A model generated the notes under the pieces. It saw only the letters and a list, made by a program, of their open reading frames with translations, was not told the DNA's origin and made no database searches. A stretch of DNA of 38,534 nt, taken from NCBI GenBank assembly GCA_034435815.1, contig DAOTWK010000239.1, positions 1 to 38,534 on the forward strand, read 5' to 3'. The DNA comes from Anaerolineae bacterium (GTDB taxonomy: Bacteria > Chloroflexota > Anaerolineae > B4-G1 > DUEL01). Both the position numbers and the translations under genes were made by a program. Of this stretch, positions 2,100 to 32,800 are shown in pieces; positions within the stretch are counted from its first letter, which is position 1, and each line of letters opens with the position of its first letter.

Positions 2100-2589
2100 A
2101 TGATCCGGTTGCTGGTGGTGGACGATCATCCGGTAGTGCGGGCCGGGATGCGGGCCCTTCTGGAGGCCCAGGGGGATGTATACATCGTGGGTGAGGCGGC
2201 GAAGGGAGAGGCGGCATTACGGCTGGCGGAGATGCTGCGACCCGACGTGGTGCTTCTGGACTGCCGGTTGCCGGGGATAGATGGAGTGACGGTAGCGCGG
2301 GCCCTGCGGGAGCGCTGTCCGGCCGCCCGCACAGTGGCGCTGAGCGCGCATGCGGATGGGTGCCTGGTCTGGGGGATGTTGGAGGCCGGGGCGGCGGGGT
2401 ACGTGCTGAAGGACAAGCCGCCGGAGGCGATTCTGGCGGCGGTGCGGGCGGCGGCAGGGGGAGAGATACTTCAGTCCATCGGTGGCGCTCCGGGTGGCTG
2501 CCTGGGCACGGGGCGAGCGGCCCGGCAGGCTGACAGAGCGGGAGTGGGAAGTTTTGCGGTTGATGGTAGATCTCCTCTCCCGCCGCTGA
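2100..2589 (+). pseudogene. NarL/LuxR-type response regulator, frameshifted and 3'-truncated
   Basis: The receiver domain is intact (MIRLLVVDDHPVVRAG...DVVLLDCRLPGIDG...YVLKD). After the G5 run at 2457-2461 the family-typical continuation ERYFSPSVALRV...RLTEREWEVLRLMV is in the +1 frame. That frame stops at 2587-2589, before the rest of the LuxR HTH. The 305-aa track ORF continues out of frame into antisense hypE. Confidence 0.75.
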
Positions 2590-6335: not shown

Positions 6336-6407
6336 GGCGACGTAGCTCAAAGGCAGAGCAGGGGACTCATAAGCCCTTGGTTGGGGGTTCAAATCCCTCC
6401 GTCGCCA
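6336..6407 (+). tRNA. tRNA with CAT anticodon (elongator Met, or Ile2 if lysidine-modified); no encoded CCA
   Basis: I folded the cloverleaf by hand. Acceptor stem GGCGACG/CGTCGCC is a perfect 7 bp. D arm is GCTC...GAGC. The anticodon loop CTCATAA has CAT at 6368-6370. T arm is GGGGG TTCAAAT CCCTC. G1-C72 are paired, so this is not an initiator. One A-G mismatch closes the anticodon stem. Confidence 0.85.
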
Positions 6408-6427
6408 CTGGAAGTCTGAATCCAACC

Positions 6428-12144: not shown

Positions 12145-12172
12145 CCGGATTGCGTATTCCGTGTTCCGTTAG
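12145..12172. repeat. Heptamer repeat (CCGTATT family) filling the spacer between the MTase-1 stop and the XDH start
   Basis: ccggatt gcgtatt ccgtgtt ccgttag. Contains CGTATTCCGTG at 12153-12163. Confidence 0.8.
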
Positions 12173-14340
12173 AACAGGGGCAGTTGGTGAACCGGGAGGG
12201 GGACGGTTGCAGCCAGCGTTTTCCCCATTTCCTGAGCCGCCAGGGACATTTCTTCCAGTAATTCTTTCAGAAGGCCCTCCCCACCGCCCCCTGTTCTCTC
12301 TGCGACGGCCCGGGTGTAATACTCCACCGTCTTGCCCATCACGACGGTAAAGACATCCACCGGATTGACCGGAAGCCCGGAGTTCAGGGTCCGCTCAATC
12401 CAGTAGCGGGCATCGTTCAGAATCCACTCCTTCAGGGCGGATATGCCACCTTCTACCATTTGCTCGGTGTGTCCTGCTTCCTGCATCTTCCGGCAGACCA
12501 GGATGCAGTCGTAGCGGATGTTGCCCGCGCTGGAGTGGAACCCGCTCCGTCCCTCCGAACGCACCACCGGCGCCGCAGAGACGTAGAATCCCGCCCGCAG
12601 AAGGAGACGGGCCACCCCTTCCCAGGCCCAGGTCTGGTTGTGGTGGAACGTGAAGGCCAGCAGGCCGTCGTCCTTCAGCACCCGATGGCATTCGGCGAAG
12701 ACCTGCCCCAGCCGCTCTACGAAGAAGTCCGCCGACTTCCCCCGCCGCTCGTTCTGCACAATCTCCTCCGGCCGCTCAGAGTAGGGCGGCTCAAACCAGG
12801 GGTAATCTGCTTGCAGCCCCAGGCGGAGCCAGACGTAGAAGAAGTCGGCCAGTTCGGAGTACTGGACGTTATCAAAATACGGCGGGTCGGTGATCACGGC
12901 GTCCACGGACCGGTCCGGGACCAACGAGAGGTCTTCGGAGGACTGGCAGCACAGGAGAGCGCCGCGAGGCGTCCGTTCCAGCGCGGAAAAGTCCTCTACC
13001 AGGACCCCTTCCGCGCGCTCCCCCCGAACGGAACGGCGGGCGCCGTCTATCCGTTCGTAGGGGCGCTGGCCGTAGGCTTTCCCCCGCCGGACCTTCTCAA
13101 AGCACCTGAAGAAGGTCCCGCGCCCGAACGCCGTCCCCCAAACGTTGTTTTCGGTCGGGCGCTCAATGGGATGGTAGGCGTGAAGGCCAAAGAAAACCGA
13201 CACCTTGTGCCAGGCCGTCTCATATTTGCAGAACATGTTGTTGGCGTCCAGCGCGTCCGAGAAGGCCAGGAGCATCAGTTCGCGGATGTTCCGGTCGGGA
13301 ATCTCCAGAATCGCCTCCAGGAGGGTGGAGAGGCAGAGCAACTGGCGCTCGTTGAACATGTGCCAGAAATGAGTGTAGCCGTGATTGACCGGGCGGGGGT
13401 CGCTGCGGCCCTCGGTGGGGATGGCCTGCCGGGGGAAGAGGAGGTCGTCCCGACGGCGCTCAAACTCGGCCCGGGCCTCCTCCCAGCGCCGCAGGTCCGC
13501 CTCATCCACCCGCTTGAAGAAGCGGCCGCAGGTCCGGCAGTAGCCCTCCAGGGCGTGGAGTTCGGCCCGCAGGGGCCTGCCCCGGCGCGCGGCCGCGTCC
13601 CCCAGCCGCTGCCGCTTTCCGCAGGCGGTGCATCGGAAAACGCCGCGCCCGGAGTTCCCCCGCCGGGGGTCAAAGACGGTCCCGCAATCCGGGCAGGCCG
13701 TGTGGGGGTCATACCCTGCCGTCTCCACCACCTGAAGGCACTCAGGGCACACCACGACGTGGCGGTGGTCCCGAAGGGAGAGCTCCATATTCGGCCACAG
13801 GCGGACGGCGGCGCCGCATTCCTCGCATTCCGCCACCTTGACCCAGAAGTAGTACATTACGTCGGCCTCGTGCCCGGCGGAGCAGGTAGTCCGATAAAAC
13901 TCCCGGATTTTCTCCCCGGCGGTCGCTTCAAGGAAGCGGAAGGCGCGATCCAGTTCCGCCAGGTCCACCGGCTCTATCTCTTTTTTGGTCACGAACCAGG
14001 CGACGGGATTGATGTCCACGCCGATGACGCGACAGCCCAGCCGAAGGGCCTCCACCACCGTGGTGCCGCCGCCCATAAAAGGGTCCAGGACGATCTTGCC
14101 CTCCAAGTTGGGACGGCATTCCGTTTCGCCTCGGGCCGGGCTCCCCACGAACCAGGACCAGAGAGTGTCTTCCGAGACTTCCGCCGAGGCGAAAGCCGCC
14201 AGCGTAATCATACGGAAGACGCTCCCCAGGCGCCGGGCCCACCATTTGTGCATCTGGTAGATGGGCTTTTTGGAGTTTCCCTCCGCCAGGGCGACAGGGT
14301 TCAGGCGTTCAACGGGGAAATCGCGCTCTATGTACCGCAT
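12169..14340 (-). CDS. Zn-ribbon-containing DNA methyltransferase (COG1743 / DUF1156-like; N6-A or N4-C type)
   Basis: 723 aa. N-terminal PIYQMHKWWARRLGSVFR is present. SAM motif I is VLDPFMGGGTT...GVDINP. Several CxxC pairs occur (CEEC, CPEC, CPDC, CTAC). Catalytic motif IV is VITDPPYFDNVQY, near the C-terminal third. Confidence 0.7.
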   Translation of the reverse strand: MRYIERDFPVERLNPVALAEGNSKKPIYQMHKWWARRLGSVFRMITLAAFASAEVSEDTLWSWFVGSPARGETECRPNLEGKIVLDPFMGGGTTVVEALRLGCRVIGVDINPVAWFVTKKEIEPVDLAELDRAFRFLEATAGEKIREFYRTTCSAGHEADVMYYFWVKVAECEECGAAVRLWPNMELSLRDHRHVVVCPECLQVVETAGYDPHTACPDCGTVFDPRRGNSGRGVFRCTACGKRQRLGDAAARRGRPLRAELHALEGYCRTCGRFFKRVDEADLRRWEEARAEFERRRDDLLFPRQAIPTEGRSDPRPVNHGYTHFWHMFNERQLLCLSTLLEAILEIPDRNIRELMLLAFSDALDANNMFCKYETAWHKVSVFFGLHAYHPIERPTENNVWGTAFGRGTFFRCFEKVRRGKAYGQRPYERIDGARRSVRGERAEGVLVEDFSALERTPRGALLCCQSSEDLSLVPDRSVDAVITDPPYFDNVQYSELADFFYVWLRLGLQADYPWFEPPYSERPEEIVQNERRGKSADFFVERLGQVFAECHRVLKDDGLLAFTFHHNQTWAWEGVARLLLRAGFYVSAAPVVRSEGRSGFHSSAGNIRYDCILVCRKMQEAGHTEQMVEGGISALKEWILNDARYWIERTLNSGLPVNPVDVFTVVMGKTVEYYTRAVAERTGGGGEGLLKELLEEMSLAAQEMGKTLAATVPLPVHQLPLF

Positions 14341-14368
14341 CCGTATTCCGTACTACGTATTCCGTGCC
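14341..14368. repeat. Heptamer repeat (CCGTATT family) spanning the last codons of the endonuclease gene and the spacer before the MTase-1 start
   Basis: ccgtatt ccgtact acgtatt ccgtgcc. Contains CGTATTCCGTG at 14356-14366. Confidence 0.8.
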
Positions 14369-15076
14369 AGAAGGTTACGCCACATTGTCTCTTCGTCGCT
14401 GCCGTAGAGGGCCTGAAACTCCCGTTCCAGTTCGTCCAGTTTGGCTTCCAGAATCTCCGACAGGGTCTGGCCTTCGGGGTCGCGAAAAGTCTCTCCGACT
14501 TCGGCGGCGATGGCGTAAATCTCATCCACGCAGTCCGGGTCTCCGGAGATGAACTCCCAGAACTCCCGCCCAACCAGCCAGTCCACGCCGCCCTCTTCCG
14601 CGACGTACTTGCGGACGATGCTGGAGACCTGGTCCCGATTCCCGTAACACATCCCAAAAAAGGCCACCGAGCCCCGATTCCGCCGCTGGGCAGAGCGCAG
14701 TAAATCGGCGATCCGCTTCGCCTGTTCTTTGGGAATGGGATTGGGGCCGCTCTTGACCTGGATGTAGTAGTGCCGCCCCTCGTGGGTTTTCAGGATGTCT
14801 GCCCCCTCCACCCCCGTCCCCTCAGAAAACACTTTGGCCGCCTTCTGGAGAGCCAGGCCGAAAGAGGTTACGGTTCCTCGCTCCAGCCGCTGGCTCACCA
14901 GCCACCGAACGATGGAACGGGCGTCCTTCAGCCCTAACTCTTTGGAGAGCAGGCGAACCAGGGAACGGGTTGACATCCAGGTCTTCTGTTCGCAGGCGGC
15001 GGATAGTCCGGACCCGCTCCCGCAGGAAGTCCTCAAAAATCTGCCGAATCTGAAGGCGCTTGTCTTCCGGTAGCAT
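14353..15076 (-). pseudogene. Putative type II restriction endonuclease (PD-(D/E)xK-like core), split by a 1-nt insertion
   Basis: The N-terminal ORF (ATG at 15076, RBS GGAG) reads MLPEDKRLQIRQIFEDFLRE...EDLDVNPF and then runs out of frame. Removing one C from the sense CCC (plus-strand GGG 14961-14963) joins it to LVRLLSKELGLKDARSIVRW...GADILKTHEGRHYYIQVKSGPN... An internal ATG at 14976 could still yield an N-truncated product. Confidence 0.6.
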
Positions 15077-15101
15077 CCCGAACTTCTCCAGTTATCGGGT
15101 A

Positions 15102-16199
15102 TCACGGGATCACTTCCCACCGCCCTACCAGTTTCTCCATAACCTGGGGGAGGGTGGTGTACTCCATCTCCTCCATCGGCAGCCGGTGGGGCTCAAAGGG
15201 GCCGTGGCGGCGGAAGTGGTCGGCGATGACGTTGCATAGATGGCGCGCCTCGTCAAAGCCCGGGTCGTCAAACATATCCCGGGGCCCCACCAGCCGTCCC
15301 CCAGCAATCTGGAACCCCAGACAAACGACGCGCGGCGGGCCGTCAAAGCGGCTGGGCGTGGCATGGTAGAGGGGGACCGGCATCAGCGGGCCGTAGTGGG
15401 AGCCCCGCATCCAGCCCTCCACGATGTGGGGCATAGTGAACGGCTCCAGCACCTCGCCGACGGCCGGGAAATCCCCCTGGCTACGGACGATACAGACGGG
15501 GTCGTCCTTGCCCACGTACCGCCCGGCGATGAGGGAGAGGCGTTGGGTAGAGGAGACGGCCGCAATCTCGCCCTTTTTGGTATAAACTGCCTTGACCATA
15601 TAGCGGCCCGGCGCGCCGATGAAGACCAGCAGGTCGTAAAGTTCCTCCGGCGTATCAAAGAAGACTCGCTTGCTCTCCTTCACATCGTGGACCTCAAAGC
15701 GGAAGCCATCATGCATTGCCGGGGAGATGACCAGACCGGCAGTATTGAAGGGGTCGGCGAACATGCGATAGAGGGGGAGGTTCCAGGCCCCAGCGGAGGT
15801 CTTATCAGCCATAAAGATGAGCACGGGCTCAGAAGGCCGCTCGGTGAACTCCATCTCCGCCACGCCGGGGCCCATCCCCTTGACGTTGCCAGAGAAAGCA
15901 TCCGCCAGCAGGTCTTGCCCGGCGCCGTAGAGTTTCAGCCGTCTGGCGACTTCGGTGCAAGCCTCAAGGGTCTCCCAGGCTAGGCGATGAATGTCGGGGT
16001 TATCCACCCCCTTGCGGTGGGTCATAATGAGTTGCAAGTCATCCCCACAGGCCGTCACATAGAAATCCACGATGAGGTCCTCTTTGACTGCCACCTCCAG
16101 CCGGTCTTCCGCTTCTTCTATGAGTTCATCGTGGACGCTGGAGTGGCCCACGAATCCACCGACATCAGCCTTGATGACGCTGAGCGTGATGTGGTCCAT
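15102..16199 (-). CDS. fbp: Fructose-1,6-bisphosphate aldolase/phosphatase (class V FBPase)
   Basis: 365 aa. LSVIKADVGGFVGH, LYGAGQDLLADAFSGNVKGMGPGVAEMEF and MADKTSAGAWNLPLY are family hallmarks. Confidence 0.92.
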   Translation of the reverse strand: MDHITLSVIKADVGGFVGHSSVHDELIEEAEDRLEVAVKEDLIVDFYVTACGDDLQLIMTHRKGVDNPDIHRLAWETLEACTEVARRLKLYGAGQDLLADAFSGNVKGMGPGVAEMEFTERPSEPVLIFMADKTSAGAWNLPLYRMFADPFNTAGLVISPAMHDGFRFEVHDVKESKRVFFDTPEELYDLLVFIGAPGRYMVKAVYTKKGEIAAVSSTQRLSLIAGRYVGKDDPVCIVRSQGDFPAVGEVLEPFTMPHIVEGWMRGSHYGPLMPVPLYHATPSRFDGPPRVVCLGFQIAGGRLVGPRDMFDDPGFDEARHLCNVIADHFRRHGPFEPHRLPMEEMEYTTLPQVMEKLVGRWEVIP

Positions 16200-16310
16200 T
16201 TTCCCCCCCTTTCTAAAATATCAGACCTCAACTTTGTCAAGTCTACGCATATAAAGAAACGGGATAGCCCACCGTTCCCCCTGAAGGGGAGTTAAAAGGG
16301 GGAACATGGG

Positions 16311-16340
16311 TTTTTTGCGGCGGCTTCGCCGCCGCAAAAA
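16311..16340. other. Palindromic hairpin T6-GCGGCGGC-ttc-GCCGCCGC-A5; not a canonical terminator in either direction
   Basis: Read directly. The T-tract is 5' and the A-tract 3' on both strands. Confidence 0.8.
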
Positions 16341-16428
16341 CCCCACCTCTCCCCCTTTTCGCGACACAGAGCCCATAAGAGTTCCTTTTTCAACACGAAA
16401 CTCAATGAGTGAATGTCGTCCGGGCGCT

Positions 16429-17586
16429 CTATTTCAGTTTCTCCTCCCCACCGAAGGGCCGATACGGGCTCAGTTGATCCAGAATCTCCTGGTCTTCCGA
16501 GGTGATGGCATTCTGCACCATGTGGGTCAGGAGGACGCCGACGCCCGGCCCCAACATGTATCCCTGGCCACACATCCCGACGGCGTAGATATACCCCTCC
16601 AGTTCCCGAGCCCAGCCGATGATAGGGAAGCCATCAGGGGTCATCGGGTAGAGGCCCCGCCAGGTACGCCGTACTTTGATGTTGGCCAGTTTCGGCATCA
16701 GGTCCACCATCCGCCGGGCAATCATGGGCAGGAAGACGGAGGTCTCCCGCCGGTCGGTGCCGATGATGGGCGGCTCCGGGGTGATGCAGAAGACAACCGG
16801 GCCGGGTTTGTGCTGGTAGAAGTAGTAGTTCTTGGAGCCCTCCGCGGGGCGGATGTCCACGACCATTGGCTCCAGGAAGCGGGCGACCGGCTCGGTGATG
16901 CCTGCCTCGTGGCAATCCGGCACCACGGGCACATCCAGTCCGGCCATCTGGGCGACGGCGCGCGCCCAGGGGCCTGCGGCGTTGACCACCACTTCGGTGG
17001 CATAGCCGCCCCGGTCGGTGCGGACACCTACCACCCGTCCCCGGCGGCGGATGATGCCGGTGACTCGCTCCCGGAAGTGGAACTCGGCGCCCCGCTCCCG
17101 CGCCCGCATGTAGAAGGCGTGGGCCGTCAGTAACGGAGAAGCGGAGCCATCGCCCGGAGAGTACGTCCCGCCGATTAGCCCGTCCGGATTCAAGTCCGGA
17201 ATGACCTGGAGGAGGTCGTCCCGGTCCAGCCAGCGGATGTTCAACCCGTAGGAGTGCTGGATTTTCAGCAGGTTCTTGAGGACCTGCTCCTCCTGCTCCC
17301 GGTAGGCGACGAAGGAGTACCCACCCTGGTACCATTCAATGTCGTCGCCATAGGTCTCCTTCCAGGTGGAGAAAATCTCAATGGACTTGAGGCAGAGGCG
17401 GATTTTGGCGGGGTCGGAGTGGGTGGCGCGGATGCCGCCAATGGCGGCCTTGTTGGAACCTTGTCCGGGACTGGCGAACTGGTCAATGACCAGGACTTTC
17501 AGACCGGCGTCGGCCATAAAGAAGGCGGCGGGCAGGCCGATGCTCCCGGCACCGATAATCACCACGTCGTAAGTCTGGGTGGTCAT
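16429..17586 (-). CDS. FAD-dependent oxidoreductase (sarcosine oxidase beta / DadA-like)
   Basis: 385 aa. The N-terminal dinucleotide-binding motif is YDVVIIGAGSIGL. RBS AGGAGG is present. Confidence 0.8.
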   Translation of the reverse strand: MTTQTYDVVIIGAGSIGLPAAFFMADAGLKVLVIDQFASPGQGSNKAAIGGIRATHSDPAKIRLCLKSIEIFSTWKETYGDDIEWYQGGYSFVAYREQEEQVLKNLLKIQHSYGLNIRWLDRDDLLQVIPDLNPDGLIGGTYSPGDGSASPLLTAHAFYMRARERGAEFHFRERVTGIIRRRGRVVGVRTDRGGYATEVVVNAAGPWARAVAQMAGLDVPVVPDCHEAGITEPVARFLEPMVVDIRPAEGSKNYYFYQHKPGPVVFCITPEPPIIGTDRRETSVFLPMIARRMVDLMPKLANIKVRRTWRGLYPMTPDGFPIIGWARELEGYIYAVGMCGQGYMLGPGVGVLLTHMVQNAITSEDQEILDQLSPYRPFGGEEKLK

Positions 17587-17606
17587 GGGGCCTCCTGAGG
17601 GTGAGA

Positions 17607-17947
17607 TCAGGACTCCTCCTGGGAGATGAGAGACTCCAGCATCGCAACCAGGTCAGACAGGTCATGCTGGACCGTCTCCCAAACTTTGACCAGGTCTACT
17701 TCAAAATACCCGTGGATCAGCCGATTTCGCATCCCGATAATCTCCGCCCACGGAATCTCCGGATGCATCTCCCTGGCAGTTGCGGAAATCCGACGGGCGG
17801 CCTCACCGATGACTTCCAGCGACTTCATGACCGCGTTCTGATGCAGCCGGCTGTCCCAAAGGCTGCTCTGTCCATTCCTCGGACAAACTCACAGGCCTCC
17901 CGCGCCGCCAGCAGCATATCCAAGAGGTAACCCTCATCGGTCTTCAT
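17607..17947 (-). pseudogene. hepT: HepT (DUF86/HEPN) toxin gene with a 1-nt deletion
   Basis: The N-terminal part [30 protein letters not shown] is in one frame. WDSRLHQNAVMKSLEVIGEAARRIS...RNRLIHGY (RxxxH HEPN motif) is in the next. The break is at the sense TTT run (plus strand 17858-17860). Confidence 0.75.
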
Positions 17948-18246
17948 AAGATGGCCTCCAGCGAGCCGAGAATCGCCTTGCGGCGAATGTAGTTCCGGCT
18001 GCGCTCCACCGCTTCCCATTCTACCAGGTCTACTTCCCGTCCAAAAATCCGAGAGAGTTCCTCTGGATACGGCTCACAGTCAGAAGGCCGTAGTGCGAAT
18101 CCGGGGCGAATTGGACCAAGACGTCTACGTCGCTATCGGGGCGGAAGTCCGAACGCAAAACGGAGCCAAACAATGCCAGGCGGGTAATCTTGTATTCCTG
18201 GCAAAGCCGGACCAGTTCCTAATAATTCACTCGTATGCGTTCCATT
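17944..18246 (-). pseudogene. mntA: MntA-type nucleotidyltransferase antitoxin gene with three lesions
   Basis: My translation of the minus strand gives [24 protein letters not shown] / [39 protein letters not shown] / [39 protein letters not shown]. Lesions: an in-frame TAG at 18220-18222, a +1 insertion at 18179-18181 and a -1 deletion near 18058-18064. The stop overlaps the hepT start (ATGA). Confidence 0.7.
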
Positions 18247-18256
18247 TCGTTCCGCT

Positions 18257-19432
18257 TCACGGCACAACGCCGCCGCAGGAGGCATAGTTGGCGTTGTGTT
18301 CCGCCTCCGTCCGGGCGAAGAGATGGCTCCCGTCGTTCTTGTGGCAGTCGGCGATGAAATAGAAGTAGTCGGTTTGGGCCGGGAAGGCCGAGGCCTGGAT
18401 GGACGCCAGGCCTGGACTGCAGATGGGGCCCGGGGGCAGGCCGGGGTAGCGGTAGGTGTTGTATGGGTGGTCTATTTCGGCAAGGCTGTTCACGCCCAGT
18501 TCGTCAAAGTAGAGCCGACGCCACCACTTCCCGGTCTTTGCGTCGTAGCCCAGGGCGTACTGGACGGTAGGGTCGGCGTTGAGGAGCCAGCCGTTCCGCA
18601 ACCGGTTCAGGAAGACGCCTGCGATAATGGGCCGCTCCTCGGGGATGACGGCCTCCCGCTCCACCAGCGAGGCCAGGGTGACCAGTTGGTGGACGGTCAG
18701 GCCCTGGTTGGCCGCTCCCATGCGCATCTCTTCGGTCACCCGCGCGTCAAAGGTCGCCAGCATACGGGCCACCACGTCATAGGCCGTCACCTCCTCCGGC
18801 AGACGGTAGGTCTCCGGGAAGAGATACCCTTCCAGGCTGGTCCCCGGCGGCAGGTCGGCCAGGAAGGGGTAGTCCTTCAGGTCGGTCTCCCGCCAGCCGG
18901 TGGTCACCAGGGCGATGAAATCCGCCTCGGCGACGCCCGTCTGCGCGGCGACGGCGGCGGCGACCTCTTCCAGCCGGAGTCCCTCACGGATAGTCACCAC
19001 CCGCTCTGGGCGAAGGCCGGTCTGCAGCGCCTCGGCAATTTCGGGAATGGTCATCGTCTGGCGCAGGGTGTAGGTGCCGGCCTCCAGCCCGGCGTCCATA
19101 CCCTTGTATTGCAAGTAGCGCCGGAAGAGTTCGGCGTTGGAGATGAGGCCGGCCTCCTGGAGGCGCTGGGCGACCGACGCCGCCGTCTCCCCGGGCTGGA
19201 CGACGAAGGTGACCGGGGTGTCGTCGGTGCCGGCGGGGCGCTGGAGTTCTTCGGCGTGCATCTGGATGTAGGTCTCCAGGGCGATCTCTTTGGGGGAGCC
19301 TGCCGCGCTAAGGTTGCAGATGGAGATACCCAGTCCGCCGGTCCGGCGGAATGCCCACACACCCCCGCCGACGATAATGGCAACTGAGGCCAGCGCCAGC
19401 AGAAAGGCCACGACACGGGCTGTTTGTTTCAT
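18257..19432 (-). CDS. mltG: Endolytic murein transglycosylase MltG (YceG-like)
   Basis: ATG at 19432 is preceded by GAGGTG. There is an N-terminal TM segment. YLFPETY, LASLVEREA and GVFLNRL motifs are present. Confidence 0.88.
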   Translation of the reverse strand: MKQTARVVAFLLALASVAIIVGGGVWAFRRTGGLGISICNLSAAGSPKEIALETYIQMHAEELQRPAGTDDTPVTFVVQPGETAASVAQRLQEAGLISNAELFRRYLQYKGMDAGLEAGTYTLRQTMTIPEIAEALQTGLRPERVVTIREGLRLEEVAAAVAAQTGVAEADFIALVTTGWRETDLKDYPFLADLPPGTSLEGYLFPETYRLPEEVTAYDVVARMLATFDARVTEEMRMGAANQGLTVHQLVTLASLVEREAVIPEERPIIAGVFLNRLRNGWLLNADPTVQYALGYDAKTGKWWRRLYFDELGVNSLAEIDHPYNTYRYPGLPPGPICSPGLASIQASAFPAQTDYFYFIADCHKNDGSHLFARTEAEHNANYASCGGVVP

Positions 19433-19514
19433 GTTCACCTCTTGCGAAACCACGAAGACGCGAATGGACAATTCGCAATGAACGATTCCTCGTGTCTTCG
19501 TGTCTTTGTAGTTT
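19433..19514. other. Structured ruvX-mltG spacer: octamer repeat (CGTGTCTT x2, 19491-19506) and a long nested hairpin
   Basis: cacgaagacgcg (19451-19462) pairs with cgtgtcttcgtg (19491-19502) with one mismatch. An inner stem gaatgg-acaattcgc region has GCGAAT/ATTCGC complementarity. Confidence 0.65.
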
Positions 19515-19931
19515 TTACTCTTTCTGGGCTTCCAAGAATCCCTGTAGCAGGACGGCAGCGGCGACGGCGTCTACATCGCCGCGCCGGCGGCGTTTTCCGG
19601 GCCGCCGGACAGTCTCCAGAATCTCCTGGGCAGCGACCGTGGTGTAGCGCTCATCCCACAACTCCACCGGCACCGGCAACGCCTCCGCCAGGGCCTGCGC
19701 GTACGCCTCCACCCAGCGGGCCTGGGGGCCCACCTCGCCGCGCAGGGTCAGCGGCCGCCCGATAATCACCTGCTCCGCGCCGTGCTCAGCGACCAGTCGG
19801 GCAATGGCGGCGAAGTCCTCGGCTCGGGACTTCCGCTCCACCACCCCCACCGGTCGGGCCACCGTCCCGGTAGGGTCGCTGACCGCCACGCCGATCCGTC
19901 GTTCTCCCAGGTCCAGTGCCAGCACGCGCAT
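19515..19931 (-). CDS. ruvX: Holliday-junction-resolvase-like / pre-16S processing nuclease RuvX (YqgF)
   Basis: MRVLALDLGERRIGVAVSD...VIIGRPL...DERYTTV. I chose the ATG at 19931; GTG at 19946 is also possible. Confidence 0.88.
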   Translation of the reverse strand: MRVLALDLGERRIGVAVSDPTGTVARPVGVVERKSRAEDFAAIARLVAEHGAEQVIIGRPLTLRGEVGPQARWVEAYAQALAEALPVPVELWDERYTTVAAQEILETVRRPGKRRRRGDVDAVAAAVLLQGFLEAQKE

Positions 19932-19942
19932 CGTGAAGGGAA

Positions 19943-20361
19943 TCACAATTTCCCCTGGTTTGCTAAACCAATAAACTCTTCCAGTGTGACCACTTTAACC
20001 GCTTCGGCTTTCTGAATATACTCTCGCCACTTATCGCCGATGAAATAATTGCGCTTGCTCCAGCCCCTTCCCCCTAATACCACATAGGCCCGACTGATTC
20101 CCCTGTCCGGATCGCCTCAGCCAAACACATAATTTCGTAAGGGACTTTCTGCTCCGCAGTGCCAGACACCTGTTGCCATTTTAAAGAAATGATGATTTTC
20201 TCACCCAGAGCATTCGTCGCAACAATGTCAGCCTTGTGAGCGCCACCACCCAGCCGCTGGCCTACGACAACCTGCTCTTCATAACTGTAATGACCATACT
20301 TCAGAGCGGGCAGCACCATTTGCTCCAGGACGGCTCCGGTGGTGGTCTTTCTGGGATTCAT
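19943..20361 (-). pseudogene. Small PD-(D/E)xK-type restriction endonuclease of R-M module 2, frameshifted
   Basis: The 95-aa ORF (…HKADIVATNALGEKIIISLKWQQVSGTAEQK…) stops at 20074. The next frame continues without stops as …AYVVLGGRGWSKRNYFIGDKWREYIQKAEAVKVVTLEEFIGLANQGKL to the TGA at 19943-19945. The shift lies near the C4/G4 run at 20100-20103. The start overlaps the MTase stop (ATGA). Confidence 0.6.
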
Positions 20362-21947
20362 ACGACTTCCTCTCGGCGAAAGATCAGCAGATAATGATGA
20401 ACAATTTTAAGAAACTCTCGGGAATCTGAAGGCATAGAAGAAGAGTTATCCGGGACTACAATCACAATCTCCTTTAGGCGAAGATGGTGGTAGCGGCTCA
20501 AATGCTCCAGTAGCAGAAGTCCTGCTGGCAAAAGATGTTCACCTTCTCGTATGTCTTCCGTTCTCACAGCCAGGAAACCACCAGGCAAGAGAACCCGCTG
20601 ACAATCTTCAGCGATCCGGTCAACGGTTTCCAGAAAACCGTAAAGATACGAGCGGGGAGGAATCTCCCCAGGAGACCCATAAACATAAAGGAGTGAAAAC
20701 GGACCATCCAACGAGGATTCCTCACCTTCCAATTTCGTCGCTTGATGAGGGAAAAGGCAGATTTCTGCCACTTGCGTTCCGCCAGCCCCAAAGCGGTTTG
20801 CCAGATTGCGAACGATTTCCAATTCCCACCGATGGGCCGGAAGAATCCACACGGAAGTAGTCTCCAAGTTCTTATCCCTCGCCTCTCCTTCCTGGATTAT
20901 CTCCCGGTGGAGTTTCCAAGAAAAAGCGCATGGAAGGAAAGTCCCCTCCTCTTGTTGTTTTTCCTCAACCGGTTTTTCAAAAATCGGCAGATACTCATGA
21001 GCCAGTAGCAGAAAGTTATACTGAAGACTACGCGCATACCAAAAACCGGTCGTCTTACAATTGTGCTGCCGCTTGATCACCAATTCTCTTAAGCGGAACC
21101 CTGCGTTGAGGAATAATCGGATCGTCCAGAATCCAATGGGCAAGACATGACGGGATTGTCGGGTATCTCCAATGAGAAGCGCGCATTTTCCCCCCGGTTT
21201 CAGGACACGCCAACTTTCTTGAGCCACCTTTCCCATTTCTTCAAGAAACCGGGGGATAGGAAGAGACGAAAGGTCGCCCTCTACCTGCGCGCTATAGTGT
21301 ACAATTCCGGCATAGGGGGGATGAGCACAGATTAAGTCTACGCTTTCCGCCTCAACAAAGGAGAGTGTCCGAGCATCTCCAACGCGGGTTTCCGGTTCGT
21401 AGACCGGCCCGACCTCTACCAATGGCGGTACCTGAAAGGACAGGTTCTCTCGTGTGAGTTGAATAGCCTGGGGGTTGATGTCTATAGCGATACAGCGTCG
21501 TCCTAAAAGCTTGGCCTCCACCGCCGTCGTGCCACCACCGACGAAGTAATCCAGCACCACGTCCCCCGGACGGGAGTACTTCAGAATCACATTACGGGGA
21601 ATATATGGAGACCAGTTCCCGCGATACCGTCCATCATGAGTCGCCCAATCACCCCGTTTCTTAAAACTCCAGACGGTGGTTGTTTCCTCCCGGAAATCGC
21701 TGGGTGTGCAGGCCCGAATCCGCTTTTGACGCGCCAGCGAAGAGATATTCACGCCATAAGCTTCCGTGATGATCTGTTCTAATTGACGAAACGAGATGCC
21801 AAACGTAACCCCGATTTCTGCATCCGGCATTCCTCCCGCCTTGGCCTCCAGCACGGCAGAGCGGAAAGCATCTTCTCCGTGCTCCTGGCGGAGGTGATTT
21901 CCCAGAGGCTGAGAAATACGTTCTCCACAAATCAGGCAGGTCTTCAT
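20358..21947 (-). CDS. DNA methyltransferase with N-terminal Zn-finger/HTH region and a degenerate second methyltransferase-like half
   Basis: 529 aa. The N-terminus has CLICGE...HLRQEH plus an HTH-like GMPDAEIGVTFGISFRQLEQI. Motif I is VLDYFVGGGTT...AIDINP and motif IV is LICAHPPY, then RVLKPGG...HEYLPIFEK. Residues about 360-529 repeat this pattern in degenerate form. GC is about 40-50%. Confidence 0.7.
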   Translation of the reverse strand: MKTCLICGERISQPLGNHLRQEHGEDAFRSAVLEAKAGGMPDAEIGVTFGISFRQLEQIITEAYGVNISSLARQKRIRACTPSDFREETTTVWSFKKRGDWATHDGRYRGNWSPYIPRNVILKYSRPGDVVLDYFVGGGTTAVEAKLLGRRCIAIDINPQAIQLTRENLSFQVPPLVEVGPVYEPETRVGDARTLSFVEAESVDLICAHPPYAGIVHYSAQVEGDLSSLPIPRFLEEMGKVAQESWRVLKPGGKCALLIGDTRQSRHVLPIGFWTIRLFLNAGFRLRELVIKRQHNCKTTGFWYARSLQYNFLLLAHEYLPIFEKPVEEKQQEEGTFLPCAFSWKLHREIIQEGEARDKNLETTSVWILPAHRWELEIVRNLANRFGAGGTQVAEICLFPHQATKLEGEESSLDGPFSLLYVYGSPGEIPPRSYLYGFLETVDRIAEDCQRVLLPGGFLAVRTEDIREGEHLLPAGLLLLEHLSRYHHLRLKEIVIVVPDNSSSMPSDSREFLKIVHHYLLIFRREEVV

Positions 21948-22008
21948 TTTCAGCGGTACCCAAGTTGCTCTGAACCCTGGTCTGGCTATTTGATCGTTTT
22001 CACCGAAT

Positions 22009-23547
22009 CTATCTTCCAGGGTTAACGTCTATCCGGATTCGCATCGGCAGCAGGGGCATCCGCATCAGCCACTGGGGCCAGACCTGTATCTGGGGTGGCT
22101 GAGCCAGCGGCCACTGAGCGGCAAGGAGGTCGGCGGCTTGAGCGACGCTCTTCCCGCGCACCGTCTGCCGGACGACCTCCGGGTCCACTTCCGCCGCTGC
22201 GTAGCCCACCGCCGAGACGGTGAACTGAATGACACCGTTCTCGGGGCCCGCCGTCGGCTCCCGAATCTGGAAGTCGGTATCTATCAGCACATGTTCAGGC
22301 GGCAGACGGCGCACCAGGGCGGCGTAGCCCACTGCCTCAGCGTTATCCCGGTCCACCGCCATACCGGTGACCAGCAATTTCATATAGACTTGCAGTTTAT
22401 CCGCCTGTTCGTAGAGGAACCGGTCGTACGAGACTTCGCTGGCCTGAATCTCCAGCGATTGCCGGAAGAGCACTTCGGTCGGTTCCAGGTACGTCTGCAG
22501 GCCCTGGTAGGCCTCCTCCAGCAACCGGGCCGTCAACTCCTTCCGGGCCCGGTCCATATCTTCCTGGGAGACGGCGCGGACTTCCTTGAGGCCGCCGCCT
22601 CGCGTCGGCTCGGGGTTGATGACCCGCAGGGCCAGGGCACTAACGCCTTCCACCTGGTTGATGAGTCCGGCGTCCACGTTGCCGGCCGGACCCTCCTCCA
22701 GGGCCTCTATAGGGGCCGGGGCCTGGCCGAAGGGAGACACCGTCACATCGCGGGTGGTAGCGAAGCGGACCGGGAAGGCGCCAGCGGACGTGCGGACAAT
22801 GGTGCGGGCGGGGACGGTAATCTCCTGGCCCAGCATGTTGGTGAAGAGGACAGTTCCGGTAGCCCGGCCCGACTCATAGGCGGCGGTGCCGGTGGTCTCC
22901 ACTTCCAGACTGCCCGCGAAGTAATCGCCCACCCGACGGGCGGGAATCTGTCCGCTGGCGGCGTCCACCGCCTGCGTTTCCAGCCCGGCCCAGACAGGGA
23001 CGGCCGCCCGGACGGTCTCCACGGTGGGGGCCAGGGTGACGGTAGCCTGGGGGACGACCGCATAGGCGAAGGCGATGATGACCAGCATGGTGGCGACGAA
23101 AACGGTCAGCCGGGCACCCAGGCGGACGTTCTGGGCCCAGGGCGGGAGCGGGCGGGCCGGCGGCGGTCGGAGCGGGACTTCCTCCTCCCACCAGGCGCGG
23201 GGCGGTGGCTTCAGGGGCTCCCGCTCCGGGCGGGGCCAGATTTGGGCCGCCTCCGCCTCGGCGATGGACGCGAAGGCCGGCAGCCCGATCCAGCGGACAT
23301 AGGCCCGCCGGTCCGGGTCCTCGGAGACGACGGCGACTTCGGCGCCCAGCCGCTCTGCCTCTCGGCGCACCCGTTCGCCGTCCAGCGGATTGGAGAAGAG
23401 ACGGGTCTCCCAGGGAAGGACAATGATGACCCGGCCGTCGGTGCCGGCACTCCGCTGTGCTCCGTGCCTGACTACGAGCGCCTGGCGTAAGCGGTGGCGC
23501 AGGACGGTCAGGTCATCGTCGGGGTGAAGGGAGATGATGTGCGGCAT
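22009..23547 (-). CDS. Hypothetical single-pass membrane protein (cytoplasmic N-domain, Pro-rich linker, TM, large extracytoplasmic domain)
   Basis: 512-aa ORF at native high GC. The TM segment is LTVFVATMLVIIAFAYAVV. I did not recognise a catalytic motif. Confidence 0.5.
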   Translation of the reverse strand: MPHIISLHPDDDLTVLRHRLRQALVVRHGAQRSAGTDGRVIIVLPWETRLFSNPLDGERVRREAERLGAEVAVVSEDPDRRAYVRWIGLPAFASIAEAEAAQIWPRPEREPLKPPPRAWWEEEVPLRPPPARPLPPWAQNVRLGARLTVFVATMLVIIAFAYAVVPQATVTLAPTVETVRAAVPVWAGLETQAVDAASGQIPARRVGDYFAGSLEVETTGTAAYESGRATGTVLFTNMLGQEITVPARTIVRTSAGAFPVRFATTRDVTVSPFGQAPAPIEALEEGPAGNVDAGLINQVEGVSALALRVINPEPTRGGGLKEVRAVSQEDMDRARKELTARLLEEAYQGLQTYLEPTEVLFRQSLEIQASEVSYDRFLYEQADKLQVYMKLLVTGMAVDRDNAEAVGYAALVRRLPPEHVLIDTDFQIREPTAGPENGVIQFTVSAVGYAAAEVDPEVVRQTVRGKSVAQAADLLAAQWPLAQPPQIQVWPQWLMRMPLLPMRIRIDVNPGR

Positions 23548-26776: not shown

Positions 26777-26836
26777 GGGGTTGCCGCACTGTTCCGTATG
26801 CCGCACTCTGTATTGCGTCCTGCGAAAGGAGCCGCC

Positions 26837-29800
26837 ATGAGCCGTAACCGCTTCTGGACCCTGCCGATCTTGCTGACGCTGCTGGTCAGCATGGTGCTTT
26901 CCTGCGCTCCTCCCTTCCTGCGCCGCGCCACGCCCACCCCGACCACCCCGCCCCTTCCTGCCACCAACCCTCTGCTGATGGTGCGCTCCCCCGCGCGGGG
27001 CGAGGAGACGCCGCTGGACCGGCCCCTCCGTCTGGTCTTTGACCAGCCCATGGACCGGGCATCTGTGGAGGCCGCGTTCCGCATTGAGCCGAAGGTGGAG
27101 GGCACCTTCTCCTGGACCGACCCGGTCACCCTGGTCTTCACTCCCAAGAAAGAGTGGCAACGGGCTACCCGCTACCGGGTCAAACTGGACACCACTGCCA
27201 AATCCGCCGAAGGCCTCCCCCTGAAGGAGGAGGTGGAGTTCACCTTCGCCACCGTCGGCTACCTGGAGGTGGCCCAGGTCCTGCCCGAACCCGGCGCGCG
27301 CGACATCCCGCCGGATACCCCCGTCACCATTATGTTCAACCGGCCCGTCGTCCCCCTGCAACTGGTCAGCGCGCCGGTGGTGGATATGCCCGTCCCCGTC
27401 GTCTTTGACCCGCCCGTGGAGGGGGCCGGCGAGTGGGTCAACACGTCCATCTACGTTTTCCGGCCCAAAACGGGCTTCGTCCCCGGCAAGACTTACCAGG
27501 CCACCGTCCCCGCGGGCCTCTCCGACACCACCGGCGGCGTCTTGGAAGAGGACTTCACCTGGCAGTTCACCATTGAGGCCCCCTATGTTCTCTTTGTAGA
27601 GCCCGCCACCGGCTCCACCCTCGTCCCCCTCACCCAGACCGTCAAAATCACCTTCAGCCAGCCAATGGACCGGGCCTCTACCCAGGCCGCCTTCTCCCTG
27701 AAACCCCTGCGGAGCGAATCTCGCGTCCCCGGCCGCTTCATCTGGAGCGAGAACGACACGGTGATGTCCTTCATCCCAGAGGGACGGCTGGAACTGGATA
27801 CGGAGTATCTCATCACCCTGGAAGAGACGGCCCTCTCCGCCCAGGGCGCGGCTCCGTTGAAGGCTCCGTACAAGTGGTCCTTCCGCACCGTCCCCTACCC
27901 CCGCATTGTCAGCACCTACCCCTCCGACGGGACGAAGGACGCCTACCCGGGCACCGAGTTCCACATCAAATTCTCCGCGCCCATGGACATCTCTACCCTG
28001 ATGCCCAACATCACCATCATCCCCGAACCGACCCGCGTCTACACCTACTGGGACCCGTGGGAGAACGCCTTCGTCCTCAACTGGAGCCCGCCCGCGTCCA
28101 CATCCTGGGAGGTCCGCCTGGGCGGCCGCATGGCCGACCCCTACGGCAACACCATCGGCCGGGACACTGTGGTCCGCTTCTCCACCCGCCCGCTGGACCC
28201 CGCCGTCTACCTTCAGGTGCCGGGCAACATCGGCCTCTACAATGCCTACACGTCCACCTACGTCTATGCTTCCTACCTCAACGTCACCCAGATAGATGTC
28301 TCCCTCTCCCGCCTGACCTGGGAGCAGTTCCAGCGTCTGACCACCGGCGACTGGTGGCAGGTCTGGGAGAGTTTCCGCCCGGCGGAGGAGCAGATTATCC
28401 GCCAGTGGACGATTCCAGTGGAGGCGCCGCTGAACGAGGCTCGCTATAAGCGGATTAACCTGGCTGAGGACGGTGGCTCCTTGCCACCCGGCCTCTACTT
28501 CCTGGAAATCTCCGCCCCGGAGACCCGCCGACAGGGTTGGAGTCCCACCCGTCATCTTTTCGTCGTCTCCCGCATCCACATGACCCTCAAACAGGCCTCG
28601 CGGGAGGCACTGGTCTGGGCTACCGACCTGGCCACCGGCAAGCCCGTCCCCAACCTGCCGGTTACCGTCTACGGGAAGTCCGGCACCATCACCGCGCGCG
28701 GCACCACCGACGCCGACGGCGTCTTCCGCACCGGCTTCCCTCCCCTGGAGGACCTCTGGACAACTTTTCTGGCCTACTCCGGCGCGCCCGGAGAGCCCAA
28801 TTTCTCCGTCGTCAGTAGCGACTGGTACAGCGGCATCGGCCCCTGGGACTTCGGCCTCTCCTCGGAGTTCTACATCCGCCCCTACCGCATCCACATCTAC
28901 ACGGACCGGCCCATCTATCGGCCGGGACAGCCCGTCTACTTCCGCGGCGTCGTCCGGGCCGAGGACGACGCCCGCTATACCCTGCCCCCGGTGGGCGAGA
29001 CCGTCTCCGTCATCGTCCGCAACGACCAGGGCGAGGAAATCTACCAAGAAACCTTGCCTCTCTCCGACCTGGGCACCTTCAACGGACAATTCACTCTGGC
29101 CCCGGAGGCCGGCCTGGGCTACTACTGGATTGAGGTCAATTACAAGAAGCAGACCGACGGCGTCGGCTTCCAGGTGGCCATGTACCGCCGCCCGGAGTTC
29201 CAGGTGACCGTCACTCCGGATAAAGACCAAGTCCTGACGGGCGATAAAATCAACGTCTCCGTCCAGGCCACTTACTTCTTCGGCGGCCCCGTTGCCGGCG
29301 CGCAGGTCCGCTGGACCCTGATGACCCAGGATTCCTGGTTCCGGCCCGACGTCCCCGGCTGGTGGGATTGGACCGACACCAGCCGGTGGGACTGGTGGAC
29401 CCCCCAGGAGGTGCCCGGCTACGGCCGTGTCATTGCCGACGGTACCGGCACCACCGACAACCAGGGCCGCTTCGTCTTCACCGTCCCCGCCGACATCAGC
29501 GACGCCCTCTTCAGCCAGCGGTTCACCATTGAGGCCACCGTCACCGACGCCACGGACCAATCCGTCTCCAACCGGGCCCAGGTCCTGGTCCATAAGGGCC
29601 TCTTCTACATCGGCCTGCGGGTCCAGCAGTACGTCGGCGTTGAGGGTGAGGAGCAGCCGGTGGACATCCGCACCGTGGACTGGGAGGGCGCTCCCGTCGC
29701 CCGCGTCCCCTTAACCCTCACCCTCACCCGGCGGGAGTGGCTCAACGTCCAGGAGGAGGACGAGTACGGCAATGTCTACTGGACCTGGACCGTCTCCGAC

Positions 29801-32800
29801 ACCGTCGTCGCCACGGCCACCGTGACGACGAACGACAGGGGCGAGGCGACGGCCAGTTTTATCCCGCCGTCGGGCGGCTCCTACGTCATCAAGGCCGAAG
29901 GGACGGACCAGAAGGGTAACCGCGTCGTCTCGGCGACCTGGCTCTGGGTCTCCGGGCGGGAGTACGTCTCCTGGCGGCAGGAGAACAACGACCGCATTTA
30001 TCTCATCGCCGACAAGCGGGAGTACCGCCCCGGCGAGACGGCGAAAATCCTCATCCCGTCGCCCTTCCAGGGGCCGGTGACGGCGCTGGTCACCGTGGAG
30101 CGCGGCCACATCATCCGCCACTGGGTCCAGACGCTTCCGGGCAACGCGGAGACGATAGACCTGCCCATCACGGCCGAAATGGCCCCCAACGCCTTTGTCT
30201 CCGTCGTCCTGGTCAAGGGCGTGGACGAGACTAACCCCGTCCCTGGCTACCGGCTGGGCTACGTCTCCTTCGGCGTCTCCACCGAGAAGCAGGAGTTGAC
30301 CGTCCGCGTCACCCCGGACCGGGATATCGCGAAGGGCGAACACTACGGCCCGCGCGAGACCGTCAACCTGAACGTTGAGGTGACAGACTCCGAAGGGAAG
30401 CCGGTGGAGGCGGAGGTCGGGCTGGCAGTGGTGGATAAGGCCGTCCTGACGCTGGCCCCGCCCAACGCGCCGTCCATCGTAGAGGCTTTCTACGGCCGGC
30501 GCGGCCTGGGCATCCGCACCGCCGATAACCTTTCCATCTCCGTGGACCGCATCAGCGTCCGCATCGCGAAGGAAGCCAAAGGCGGCGGGGGCGGCGCCGA
30601 AATGGCCGCTATGGGTGTAGAGTTCATCCGCCAGGAGTTCCCCGACACCGCCTTCTGGGCGCCTTCTGTCCGCACCGACGCGCGGGGCCGGGCGACCGTC
30701 TCCTTCAAACTCCCGGACCAACTGACTACCTGGCATATAGAGGCCCGCGCGGTCGCGCAGACCGGATCGCGGGCTGTTAGCCTGCTGTTGGTGGGCCAGA
30801 CCGAACTGGAACTCCTCTCCACGAAAGACCTGCTGGTCCGGCCGGTGACGCCCCGTTTCTTCGTGGTGGGCGACCGGGCCGATTTGGCCGCCGTCGTCCA
30901 CAACAACACCGACCGCTCCCTGGAGGTGGAGGTCTCGCTGGAGGCGCCGGGCCTGCGGATGCTGGGCGAGGCCCGCCAGAAGGTGACGATTCCGGCGAAG
31001 GGCAAGGTGCGGGTGGAGTGGCCGGTGGAGGTGCCGCGCGACTTCGCCGGCGACCGGGTTGACCTGGTCTTCCGGGCCCGGGGCGGCGGCCTCTCTGACG
31101 CGACCAAGCCCCCGGCGGGTCTCCCGCCCGACCAGTACCTGCCCGTTTACCGGTACTCGGCGGTGGAGATTGTCGGCACCGCCGGGCAACTGGCCGAGGC
31201 CGGGAGCACCCTGGAGGCCGTGGTCCTCCCGCCCAGCATAGACACCACCCAGGGCGACCTGACGGTCAAACTGGAGCCGTCCCTGGCCGCCGGGATGACC
31301 GGGGGGCTCAAGTACCTGGAGCACTTCCCCTACGAGTGCACCGAGCAACTGGTCTCCAAGTTTTTGCCCAACGTCCTCACCTACCAAGCGCTGAAGGAAC
31401 TGGGGCTGGAGCGGCCCGAACTGGAGGCCAAACTGCGGGAACTGGTCTCCTACGCAGTCCAGAAACTCTACCAGTACCAGCACCCCGACGGTGGCTGGGG
31501 CTGGTGGAAAAACGATCAGTCCAACCCGCTGACCACCGCCTACGTCGTCTTCGGCCTGGTCAAGGCGAAGGAAGCGGGCTTCGCGGTGGAGGAAAGGGTC
31601 ATCCGGGACGGCGTGAACTATCTGCGGCTGCGGATCAAGCCGGTGGACGAACTGAAGAGCCCCACCCAGGCCAACCGGCAGGCCTTCATCCTCTACGTCC
31701 TGACGGAGGCTGGGCAGGCGCGCGAGGCGGACCTGGCGAACCTCTACGAGGTACGCGGGCGGCTGAGTTACTACGGGCGGGCGTATCTGGGGCTGGCGCT
31801 GGGCATCCTGAATCCGGAGGATCCGCGGATCGGGACCATCATCGCGGACCTGACGAACGCGGCGGTGATGAGCGGGACGAGCGTCCGCTGGCAGGAGGCG
31901 GAGCCGGACCGCTGGAACTGGAACACCAACATCCGGACGACGGCCATTGTCCTGGCCCTGCTGGCCCGCTTTGACCCCCAGAACCGGCTGGCGCCGGGCA
32001 CCGTCCGCTGGCTGATGCGGGCCCGCACTGCCGACCGCTGGGAGACGACGCAGGAGACGGCCTGGGCGCTCATTGCCCTGACGGACTGGCTGGTGGCGAC
32101 CCGGGAACTGGAGGGGAACTACGCCTGGGGCGTGCGGGTGAACGGCCGCGACCTGGGCTCCGGGCAGGTGACGCCCCAGACCGTCCAGGAGGTGACGGAG
32201 TTGCGGTTGGCGGTCAAGGACCTCTTCGTGGATCAGGCGAACCGGGTGGAGATTGCCCGGGGCGAGGGGCCGGGCCGGCTCTACTACACCGTCCACCTGC
32301 GCGGCTACCTGCCGGTGGAGCAAATCCAGGCCCTGAACCGGGGGGTCATCGTAGGCCGGGTCTACGAGCGGGCGGACTGCAAGAAAGACTGTCGGCCGGT
32401 CACCGAGGCCCGCGTGGGCGACCTCATCCGGGTCCGGCTGACCATCATTGCCCCCACCGACCTGAACTACGTGGTGGTGGAGGATCCGTTCCCGGCGGGG
32501 ATGGACCCGGTGGATCGGAGCCTCTTGACGACGAGTGTGGTGGGTGAACGGCCGGAGGTGGTCCGCACCGACTGGGATTGGCGCCGCTGGGGCTGGGGCT
32601 GGTGGTGGTTCGCCGACACCGACCTGCGGGACGAGAAACTGGTGCTCTTTGCCACCGAACTTCCGCGCGGCACCTATGAGTACACCTATCTGTTGCAGGT
32701 GGGGCTGGCGGGAGAGTACAAAGTCCTGCCGACGACGGCCTACGAGATGTACTTCCCCGAGGTCATGGGCCGGACGGACGGGGTGGTGTTCACGGTAGTG

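Follow-up and report, generated by a model that had tools for sequence, protein, structure and literature searches.

Probable nuclease-first and toxin-first decay of two restriction-modification modules and a type VII toxin-antitoxin module at shared sites in a hot-spring Chloroflexota clade

In the model proposed by Seshasayee et al. 2012 (PMC3424554), restriction-modification (R-M) systems degrade from the restriction endonuclease (REase, R) onward: under post-segregational killing, R has to go before the methyltransferase (MTase, M) does. The same study also describes fully degraded relics. In the HepT/MntA type VII toxin-antitoxin (TA) system, the antitoxin MntA adenylylates its toxin, HepT (Yao et al. 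2020, PMC7641770). Here we describe a window of 38,534 bp, one entire NCBI contig (DAOTWK010000239.1) from an uncultured hot-spring member of the Chloroflexota (Anaerolineae/'Thermoflexales'), in which three small selfish or defence modules, R1-M1, mntA-hepT and M2-R2, are set among housekeeping genes (Table 1). The two nuclease genes, the toxin gene and the antitoxin gene are all broken, and both MTase genes are uninterrupted. We consider this, with a probability of about 80%, to be ordinary decay of a kind already described, in which the order of loss is constrained and nuclease or toxin goes first. No new mechanism or system is shown; the process is known and well documented.

The two R-M modules resemble the orphan MTases of Seshasayee et al. 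in that an intact MTase lies beside a decayed REase and related genomes hold intact R-M orthologues. In contrast to those cases, where the REases were highly diverged, the REases of the window are one frameshift old, and a full series of stages is present at one syntenic site across an uncultured Chloroflexota clade; there is also no sign that the window MTases have gained a host function. R1-M1 is like the PmeII/EcoO109I R-M systems (PF14511), R1 belonging to a 241-aa family and having a DNA MTase directly downstream, but R1 is frameshifted and its partner is a DUF1156-like MTase with zinc ribbons. M2-R2 is like other pairs of a PF20472 protein and an N6/N4 MTase: R2 is 139 aa long, directly follows an M2-type MTase and has a PD-(D/E)XK fold; its gene, however, is frameshifted, and in the window only. 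The mntA-hepT module shares with type VII TA systems an antitoxin gene that lies upstream of the toxin gene and overlaps its start, the Rx4HxY and GSx10DxD motifs and matches in Pfam and NCBIfam, and differs from them in that both genes are pseudogenes.

In a three-frame translation, R1, hepT, mntA and R2 are each split across frames, and the joined proteins match Pfam families over every junction. The lesions were located by alignment with two sets of sequences. Sister loci from eight species (L004 to L011) came from a scan of a genome collection with the fructose-1,6-bisphosphate aldolase/phosphatase (FBPase) gene. Further assemblies, found by exact-protein look-up, were the NCBI metagenome-assembled genome (MAG) GCA_964498275.1 (L001) and Logan assemblies of runs ERR1612257, ERR1612259 and SRR7473445. 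The GCA_964498275.1 contig is 99.75% identical to the window over 21 kb and has different ends.

In R1, alignment with the intact genes of L005 and L009 revealed a 1-nt insertion (CC>CCC) at 14961-14963, where the orthologues read ATC AAC CCC TTC CTG and the window reads GTC AAC CCG TTC C CTG. The insertion splits an NPFLxRxL motif that is invariant among 30 family members; the invariant residues of the N-terminal part are F14, F17, L28, L33, N36, P37 and F38. Repaired R1 matches PF14511 (RE_EcoO109I) across the junction (E=6e-20, residues 10-186, cut-off 22.5 bits). Its homologues are all ~241 aa long and tightly conserved, and bear the NCBI name PmeII family type II restriction endonuclease. 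R1 is thus a member of a type II REase family whose reading frame is not intact in the window. No NCBIfam or PADLOC model matched R1, and a PDB sequence search returned nothing. Each of the three other assemblies covering the site has the identical frameshift (L001, L002 and L003, with GCA_964498275.1 and the Logan assemblies of ERR1612257 and ERR1612259 among the sources). The adjoining M1 carries motif I (FMGGG, aa 88) and motif IV (DPPY, aa 485), both common to the L005 and L009 orthologues that stand beside an intact R1, and matches PF01555 and the PADLOC model MTase_II/DUF1156_MTase.

Phase variation of R-M systems is known from other bacteria, and the R1 lesion sits in a run of C. The nuclease genes could in that case be reversibly switched, or read through by programmed frameshifting. 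However, the run is only 3 nt long, the site of the R2 lesion is non-repetitive, the R1 frameshift is fixed in all four covering assemblies, and mntA has a stop codon as well as two uncompensated indels. By eye, no slippery heptamer or long tract is present at the lesions, and programmed +1 frameshifting at UUC-CCU-G and transcriptional slippage were rejected on the same inspection. We regard switching or read-through as barely credible here.

In the mntA-hepT module, the lesions were mapped against the intact genes of L005, relative to which neither reading frame is intact. The hepT gene has a 1-nt deletion at ~17856/57 (codon 32), 3' of which the RNRLIHGY (Rx4HxY) motif is still encoded, and mntA has three lesions: GAG>TAG at 18219-18221 (codon 9), deletion of one A at 18060/61 and an extra C at 17950, near the 3' end. 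Recoding of the TAG was rejected, the orthologue codon being GAG. The deletion and the extra C flank 110 nt, and the last codons (YEDR and the stop) regain the N-terminal frame; with this spacing, the part out of frame is the conserved middle of the protein. L001 and a Logan contig (L085) have the same hepT sequence as the window and share its mntA lesions. Repaired HepT matches PF01934 (HepT-like, E=3e-27) and repaired MntA, with its GSx10DxD motif, matches PF01909 (nucleotidyltransferase, E=1e-15). Their NCBIfam scores of 39 and 44 bits fall short of the equivalog cut-offs of 60, and no PADLOC model matched HepT. The mntA stop overlaps the hepT start (ATGA), and the antitoxin gene is the first in a two-gene operon.

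The R2 lesion, mapped against the intact genes of L001 and L010, is a 1-nt deletion at 20096/97 (codon 89, TAC>T-C) outside any homopolymer: the intact alleles read GAA TAC followed by AGT or AAT, and the window reads GAAT-CAGT. The deletion costs R2 its core strand beta4 (91-97) and everything downstream, including an invariant VLGGxGW segment, and leaves a product of 95 aa (P0123); near-identical strains carry intact R2 alleles (P0001, P0121 and P0122). Repaired R2 matches PF20472 (PDDEXK_11, E=1e-16). Its AlphaFold2 model (pLDDT 91.5) is that of a minimal PD-(D/E)XK nuclease with a strand at 91-97 and matches the folds of AF1548, the Can2 nuclease domain and the restriction enzymes EcoO109I, BspD6I, OkrAI and PaqCI. 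The family comprises ~1700 small proteins; none of the members returned had a functional name or a solved structure, and searches with R2 found no NCBIfam or PADLOC model and no PDB sequence match. The PF20472 nuclease stands consistently beside a DNA MTase, also in unrelated genomes, the partner being either M2-like (L001, L010 and L086) or Dam-like D12 (L088). From fold and gene neighbourhood, we propose that R2 is a putative type II REase. In L086 (2287-4426), the nuclease and an M2-like MTase of 542 aa are inserted between the genes of the V-type ATPase B and D subunits, and in L088 (3192-4417) the nuclease occurs with a Dam-like D12 MTase of 269 aa; one small nuclease family is thus partnered by two MTase classes.

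M2 carries motif I (DYFVGGGTT) and motif IV (HPPY), identical in the orthologues with an intact R2 partner (L001, L010 and L086), and matches PF01555 (E=6e-27) and the PADLOC model MTase_II (PDLC03376, E=3e-92). The possibility that HPPY is a decayed DPPY was rejected, since HPPY is native to the whole family, including members beside an intact R2. The M2-R2 island (19500-22000) has ~50% G+C, compared with 63-68% in its flanks; the module occupies the same site in species separated by dS 0.6-0.8, yet its composition has not been ameliorated.

Six lesions had been listed by the first-pass annotation, and against the intact orthologues (L005, L009, L010 and L001) this count stands, with one coordinate misplaced. 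The R1 insertion lies exactly where it had been put. The hepT deletion, given as 17858-17860, and the R2 frameshift, given as near 20100-20103, are each confirmed by alignment and map a few bases away, and the mntA deletion had rightly been placed near 18060. The mntA stop codon was correctly read, with coordinates (18220-18222) off by one base. The insertion called at 18179-18181 is absent, window and L005 being collinear there, and the third mntA lesion is instead the extra C at 17950. The annotation was also right that both MTases are intact, as uninterrupted genes with motifs I and IV, and that the long open reading frames (ORFs) of 5.97, 2.76, 2.46, 2.28 and 2.17 kb are uninterrupted.

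It had further argued that the lesions are not random sequencing error, and this holds for three of the four broken genes: since the R1, hepT and mntA lesions recur identically in independent assemblies, they are not sequencing errors. The alternative, that the indels are consensus errors and the genes actually intact, has in its favour that the source is a MAG, that short runs (CCC, GG and TTTGGG) contain three of the five indels and that the R2 deletion is found in this contig only. Against it stand the recurrence of the other lesions in a second NCBI MAG, whose contig ends differ, and in the Logan assemblies of two separate runs, the fact that one lesion is a substitution, and the position of the R2 deletion outside a homopolymer and beside a cluster of private substitutions. 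The R2 deletion is also the only frame-breaking difference over the ~30.8 kb compared between assemblies; the remaining indels are one intergenic base (~6425, just downstream of the tRNA-Met gene) and a compensated +1/-1 pair in ruvX, so that just one other indel is uncompensated. Just downstream of the R2 deletion, the window has three amino-acid changes of its own (D>N, T>I and N>K), with none upstream; this distribution would favour a true pseudogene of slightly greater age over an error in the consensus. When metagenomes were scanned for the region of the deletion, neither R2 allele was matched. Taken across the module genes, we judge artefact to be very improbable.

The surroundings of the R2 lesion are themselves divergent. 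Between the window and GCA_964498275.1, ruvX shows ten differences in 21 bp (19821-19841), including the compensating pair, and close to half of all differences over 21 kb fall within 19470-20268. Recombination at the border of the M2-R2 module may have produced this patch.

We then compared the three sites across the sister species, whose housekeeping genes differ by dS ~0.3-0.6 in a star-like pattern. All eight keep the gene order AlaS-BaseplateJ-like-(M2-R2)-RuvX-MltG-(MntA-HepT)-DAO-FBPase-(R1-M1)-XDH-TPR-TrmD, with the modules, where present, in the bracketed places. L005 has intact R1-M1 and MntA-HepT modules and no M2-R2. L009 has an intact R1-M1 module, its other two sites not being covered. 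In L010, M2-R2 is intact, only the last 57 codons of R1 and 43 codons of mntA are left, and M1 is gone. L008, in which the R1-M1 site is not covered, lacks MntA-HepT and has a full-length M2 beside an R2 with deletions of 8 bp and 137 bp. L007 and L011 lack both MntA-HepT and M2-R2 and retain remnants of M1 (residues 3-116 and 640-723, respectively). In L004 and L006, all three sites are empty. Complete R-M pairs therefore exist at the syntenic sites in relatives, R1 with M1 in L005 and L009 and M2 with R2 in L010 and L001, and every stage of decay is found at the same three sites: intact modules, a broken R beside a whole M, remnants and clean loss. Such mixed states at shared sites indicate that the modules are old residents undergoing independent loss. 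L008 is an independent lineage that repeats the pattern of a whole M2 beside a broken R2. In three independent events, it was the nuclease that was struck and not the MTase, which is three to four times larger (p ~0.011 under uniform hits).

These observations are consistent with the following scenario. A genus-level clade would have inherited the three modules at these positions, and its species would be losing them separately. Death of the cell would follow if M went before R, or the antitoxin before the toxin, and the viable paths would begin with R or with the toxin. After the death of R or toxin, the partner would drift and finally be deleted. In the window, both nucleases, the toxin and the antitoxin would be young pseudogenes, each having one to three lesions in a sequence that otherwise still looks selected; hepT would have died before mntA, which then gathered its three lesions, and the intact M1 and M2 would be survivors of the order of loss, at an intermediate stage. 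M would persist here because its loss before that of R is lethal. Nuclease and toxin activity have probably been lost.

It is also conceivable that the lineage was positively selected for disarmament, that is, against self-killing modules, for instance after a change in lifestyle or phage pressure. This would account for three modules being struck in a short time with lesions that are all young, and two further features fit it: the sole frame-breaking difference between two near-identical strains falls in R2, and R2 has three private non-synonymous changes. However, the same modules decay in most sister species and the loss is not specific to this lineage, an unrelated regulator is a pseudogene too, and neutral decay in an order set by viability covers all the observations. 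We consider selection for disarmament improbable.

The retention of the MTases admits another explanation. Following the first-pass annotation, M1 and M2 could be kept adaptively as orphan MTases, either as a 'vaccine' against re-invasion by an R-M system of the same type, an idea that has been published (PMC3424554), or as epigenetic regulators. Both are full length with all motifs, the dN/dS of M1 on the window branch is ~0.13, as in lineages with an intact R1, and in L008, too, a complete M2 stands next to a gutted R2. The between-species dN/dS values are 0.10 (R1), 0.09 (hepT), 0.15-0.18 (R2), 0.13 (M1, with or without an intact R1) and 0.15 (M2). The low values of the pseudogenes imply that their lesions are recent, and because they are recent dN/dS is too blunt to tell whether the MTases are still selected. 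Where R1 is gone, M1 is reduced to remnants (L007 and L011) or deleted (L010, L004 and L006). Within the species, the comparison of the window with GCA_964498275.1 gave five non-synonymous and two synonymous differences in M1 and M2, a count of just seven sites, versus six and 25 in the neighbouring housekeeping genes (Fisher p=0.014). This excess suggests relaxed constraint, and the MTases may no longer be under selection. A retained epigenetic or anti-reinvasion role is thus unsupported, with the losses in sister species and the polymorphism leaning against it, and we think it unlikely. Of the wider idea that a conserved 10-kb housekeeping stretch of this Thermoflexales-like clade carried the three modules vertically through speciation, the strongest form, in which M1 and M2 are still active and selected here, seems to us similarly doubtful.

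Several points weigh against decay from the nuclease and toxin end as we have described it. An M1 dN/dS of 0.13 on the window branch is also expected under continued selection on an orphan MTase, and the small number of polymorphic MTase sites bears on the same question. For the R2 deletion, seen in a single contig, assembly error is possible; exact-product look-ups with the window M1, M2, 95-aa R2 fragment and RuvX returned no match, which leaves this lesion without a second assembly for comparison. An internally initiated R1 fragment of 207 aa or a C-terminal HepT fragment of 73 aa could in principle keep some function. Finally, in the pan-genome survey of Oliveira et al. 2014 (PMC4176335), solitary MTases rarely arose by degradation in situ. 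As this route is uncommon, a clear case of it has some illustrative value.

The rest of the window is almost free of such lesions. The remaining coding sequence had been described as uninterrupted, and this was wrong: a NarL/FixJ-type response regulator is frameshifted and lacks a complete helix-turn-helix (HTH). Its REC domain is intact and is the only domain found by Pfam. The frame changes at ~2462-2467, in a G5/(GA)n stretch, and translation ends 13 residues into the LuxR-type HTH, just after 'LTEREWEVLRLMV'. Repaired, it aligns to NarL (1a04) over residues 8-168 of 215, and this alignment suggests that it is a pseudogene. The gene is broken identically in two other assemblies (L091 and L092), and the public annotation calls no gene there. 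No orthologue was found in the sister loci, where synteny ends after an AIRS-like gene. No histidine kinase was noticed adjoining the regulator.

All other genes of the window match full-length Pfam domains or public gene calls. Lesions thus affect four of four nuclease, toxin and antitoxin genes and one of 23 others (Fisher p=0.0003), a non-random concentration that is expected, because only dispensable genes tolerate such lesions. The view that killing components had decayed selectively is borne out in part: both nucleases are broken and the MTases whole. However, the most damaged gene of all is the antitoxin mntA, and the broken regulator is not toxic.

Table 1 Features of the 38,534-bp window, with positions on the forward strand
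Feature	Positions	Strand	Description
Response regulator pseudogene	2100-2589	+	NarL/FixJ-type
tRNA-Met (CAT)	6336-6408	+	
M1	12169-14340	-	723-aa N6/N4 DNA methyltransferase, DUF1156-like, uninterrupted
R1 pseudogene	14353-15076	-	PmeII/EcoO109I-family type II restriction endonuclease; 240 aa once repaired
FBPase	15102-16199	-	class V FBP aldolase/phosphatase
FAD oxidoreductase	16429-17586	-	
hepT pseudogene	17607-17947	-	type VII HEPN RNase toxin
mntA pseudogene	17944-18245	-	MNT nucleotidyltransferase antitoxin
MltG	18257-19471	-	
RuvX	19515-19946	-	
R2 pseudogene	19943-20361	-	139-aa minimal PD-(D/E)XK nuclease, PF20472
M2	20358-21947	-	529-aa N6/N4 DNA methyltransferase, uninterrupted
Baseplate_J-like protein	22009-23547	-	512 aa
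Alpha-2-macroglobulin-like protein	26798-32806	+	2002 aa, intact 5.97-kb ORF
Contig tail	36018-38362	-	FkbM-type methyltransferase and 516-aa protein

Outside the modules, the Baseplate_J-like protein has a weak match to its family (E=2e-5) and is found in every sister species, with alaS and ruvX on either side and 86-92% identity; it is a conserved resident gene and not part of a prophage. The bacterial alpha-2-macroglobulin-like protein contains Big_5, MG2, A2M, TED and bMG10 domains. The tRNA-Met gene was the sole RNA gene found in the window by Rfam or ARAGORN. The contig tail has a lower G+C content (52-56%), and its sequence is identical in a Logan contig; its 516-aa protein had no match in Pfam or NCBIfam.

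Two of the broken genes also carry a warning for annotation, as the public calls of a 207-aa 'RE_EcoO109I' and a 73-aa 'HepT-like' protein are pseudogene fragments. The value of the locus is that of a clean, well-controlled example: across sister species, identical chromosomal sites hold the modules whole, newly broken or as stubs, or no longer hold them, which makes directly visible an order of decay, with R and toxin first, that had previously been inferred statistically. If the modules were indeed carried vertically through speciation, the clade would provide a natural time series for the rate and order in which R-M and TA genes die, and would allow the transient keeping of orphan MTases as protection against re-invasion to be tested.

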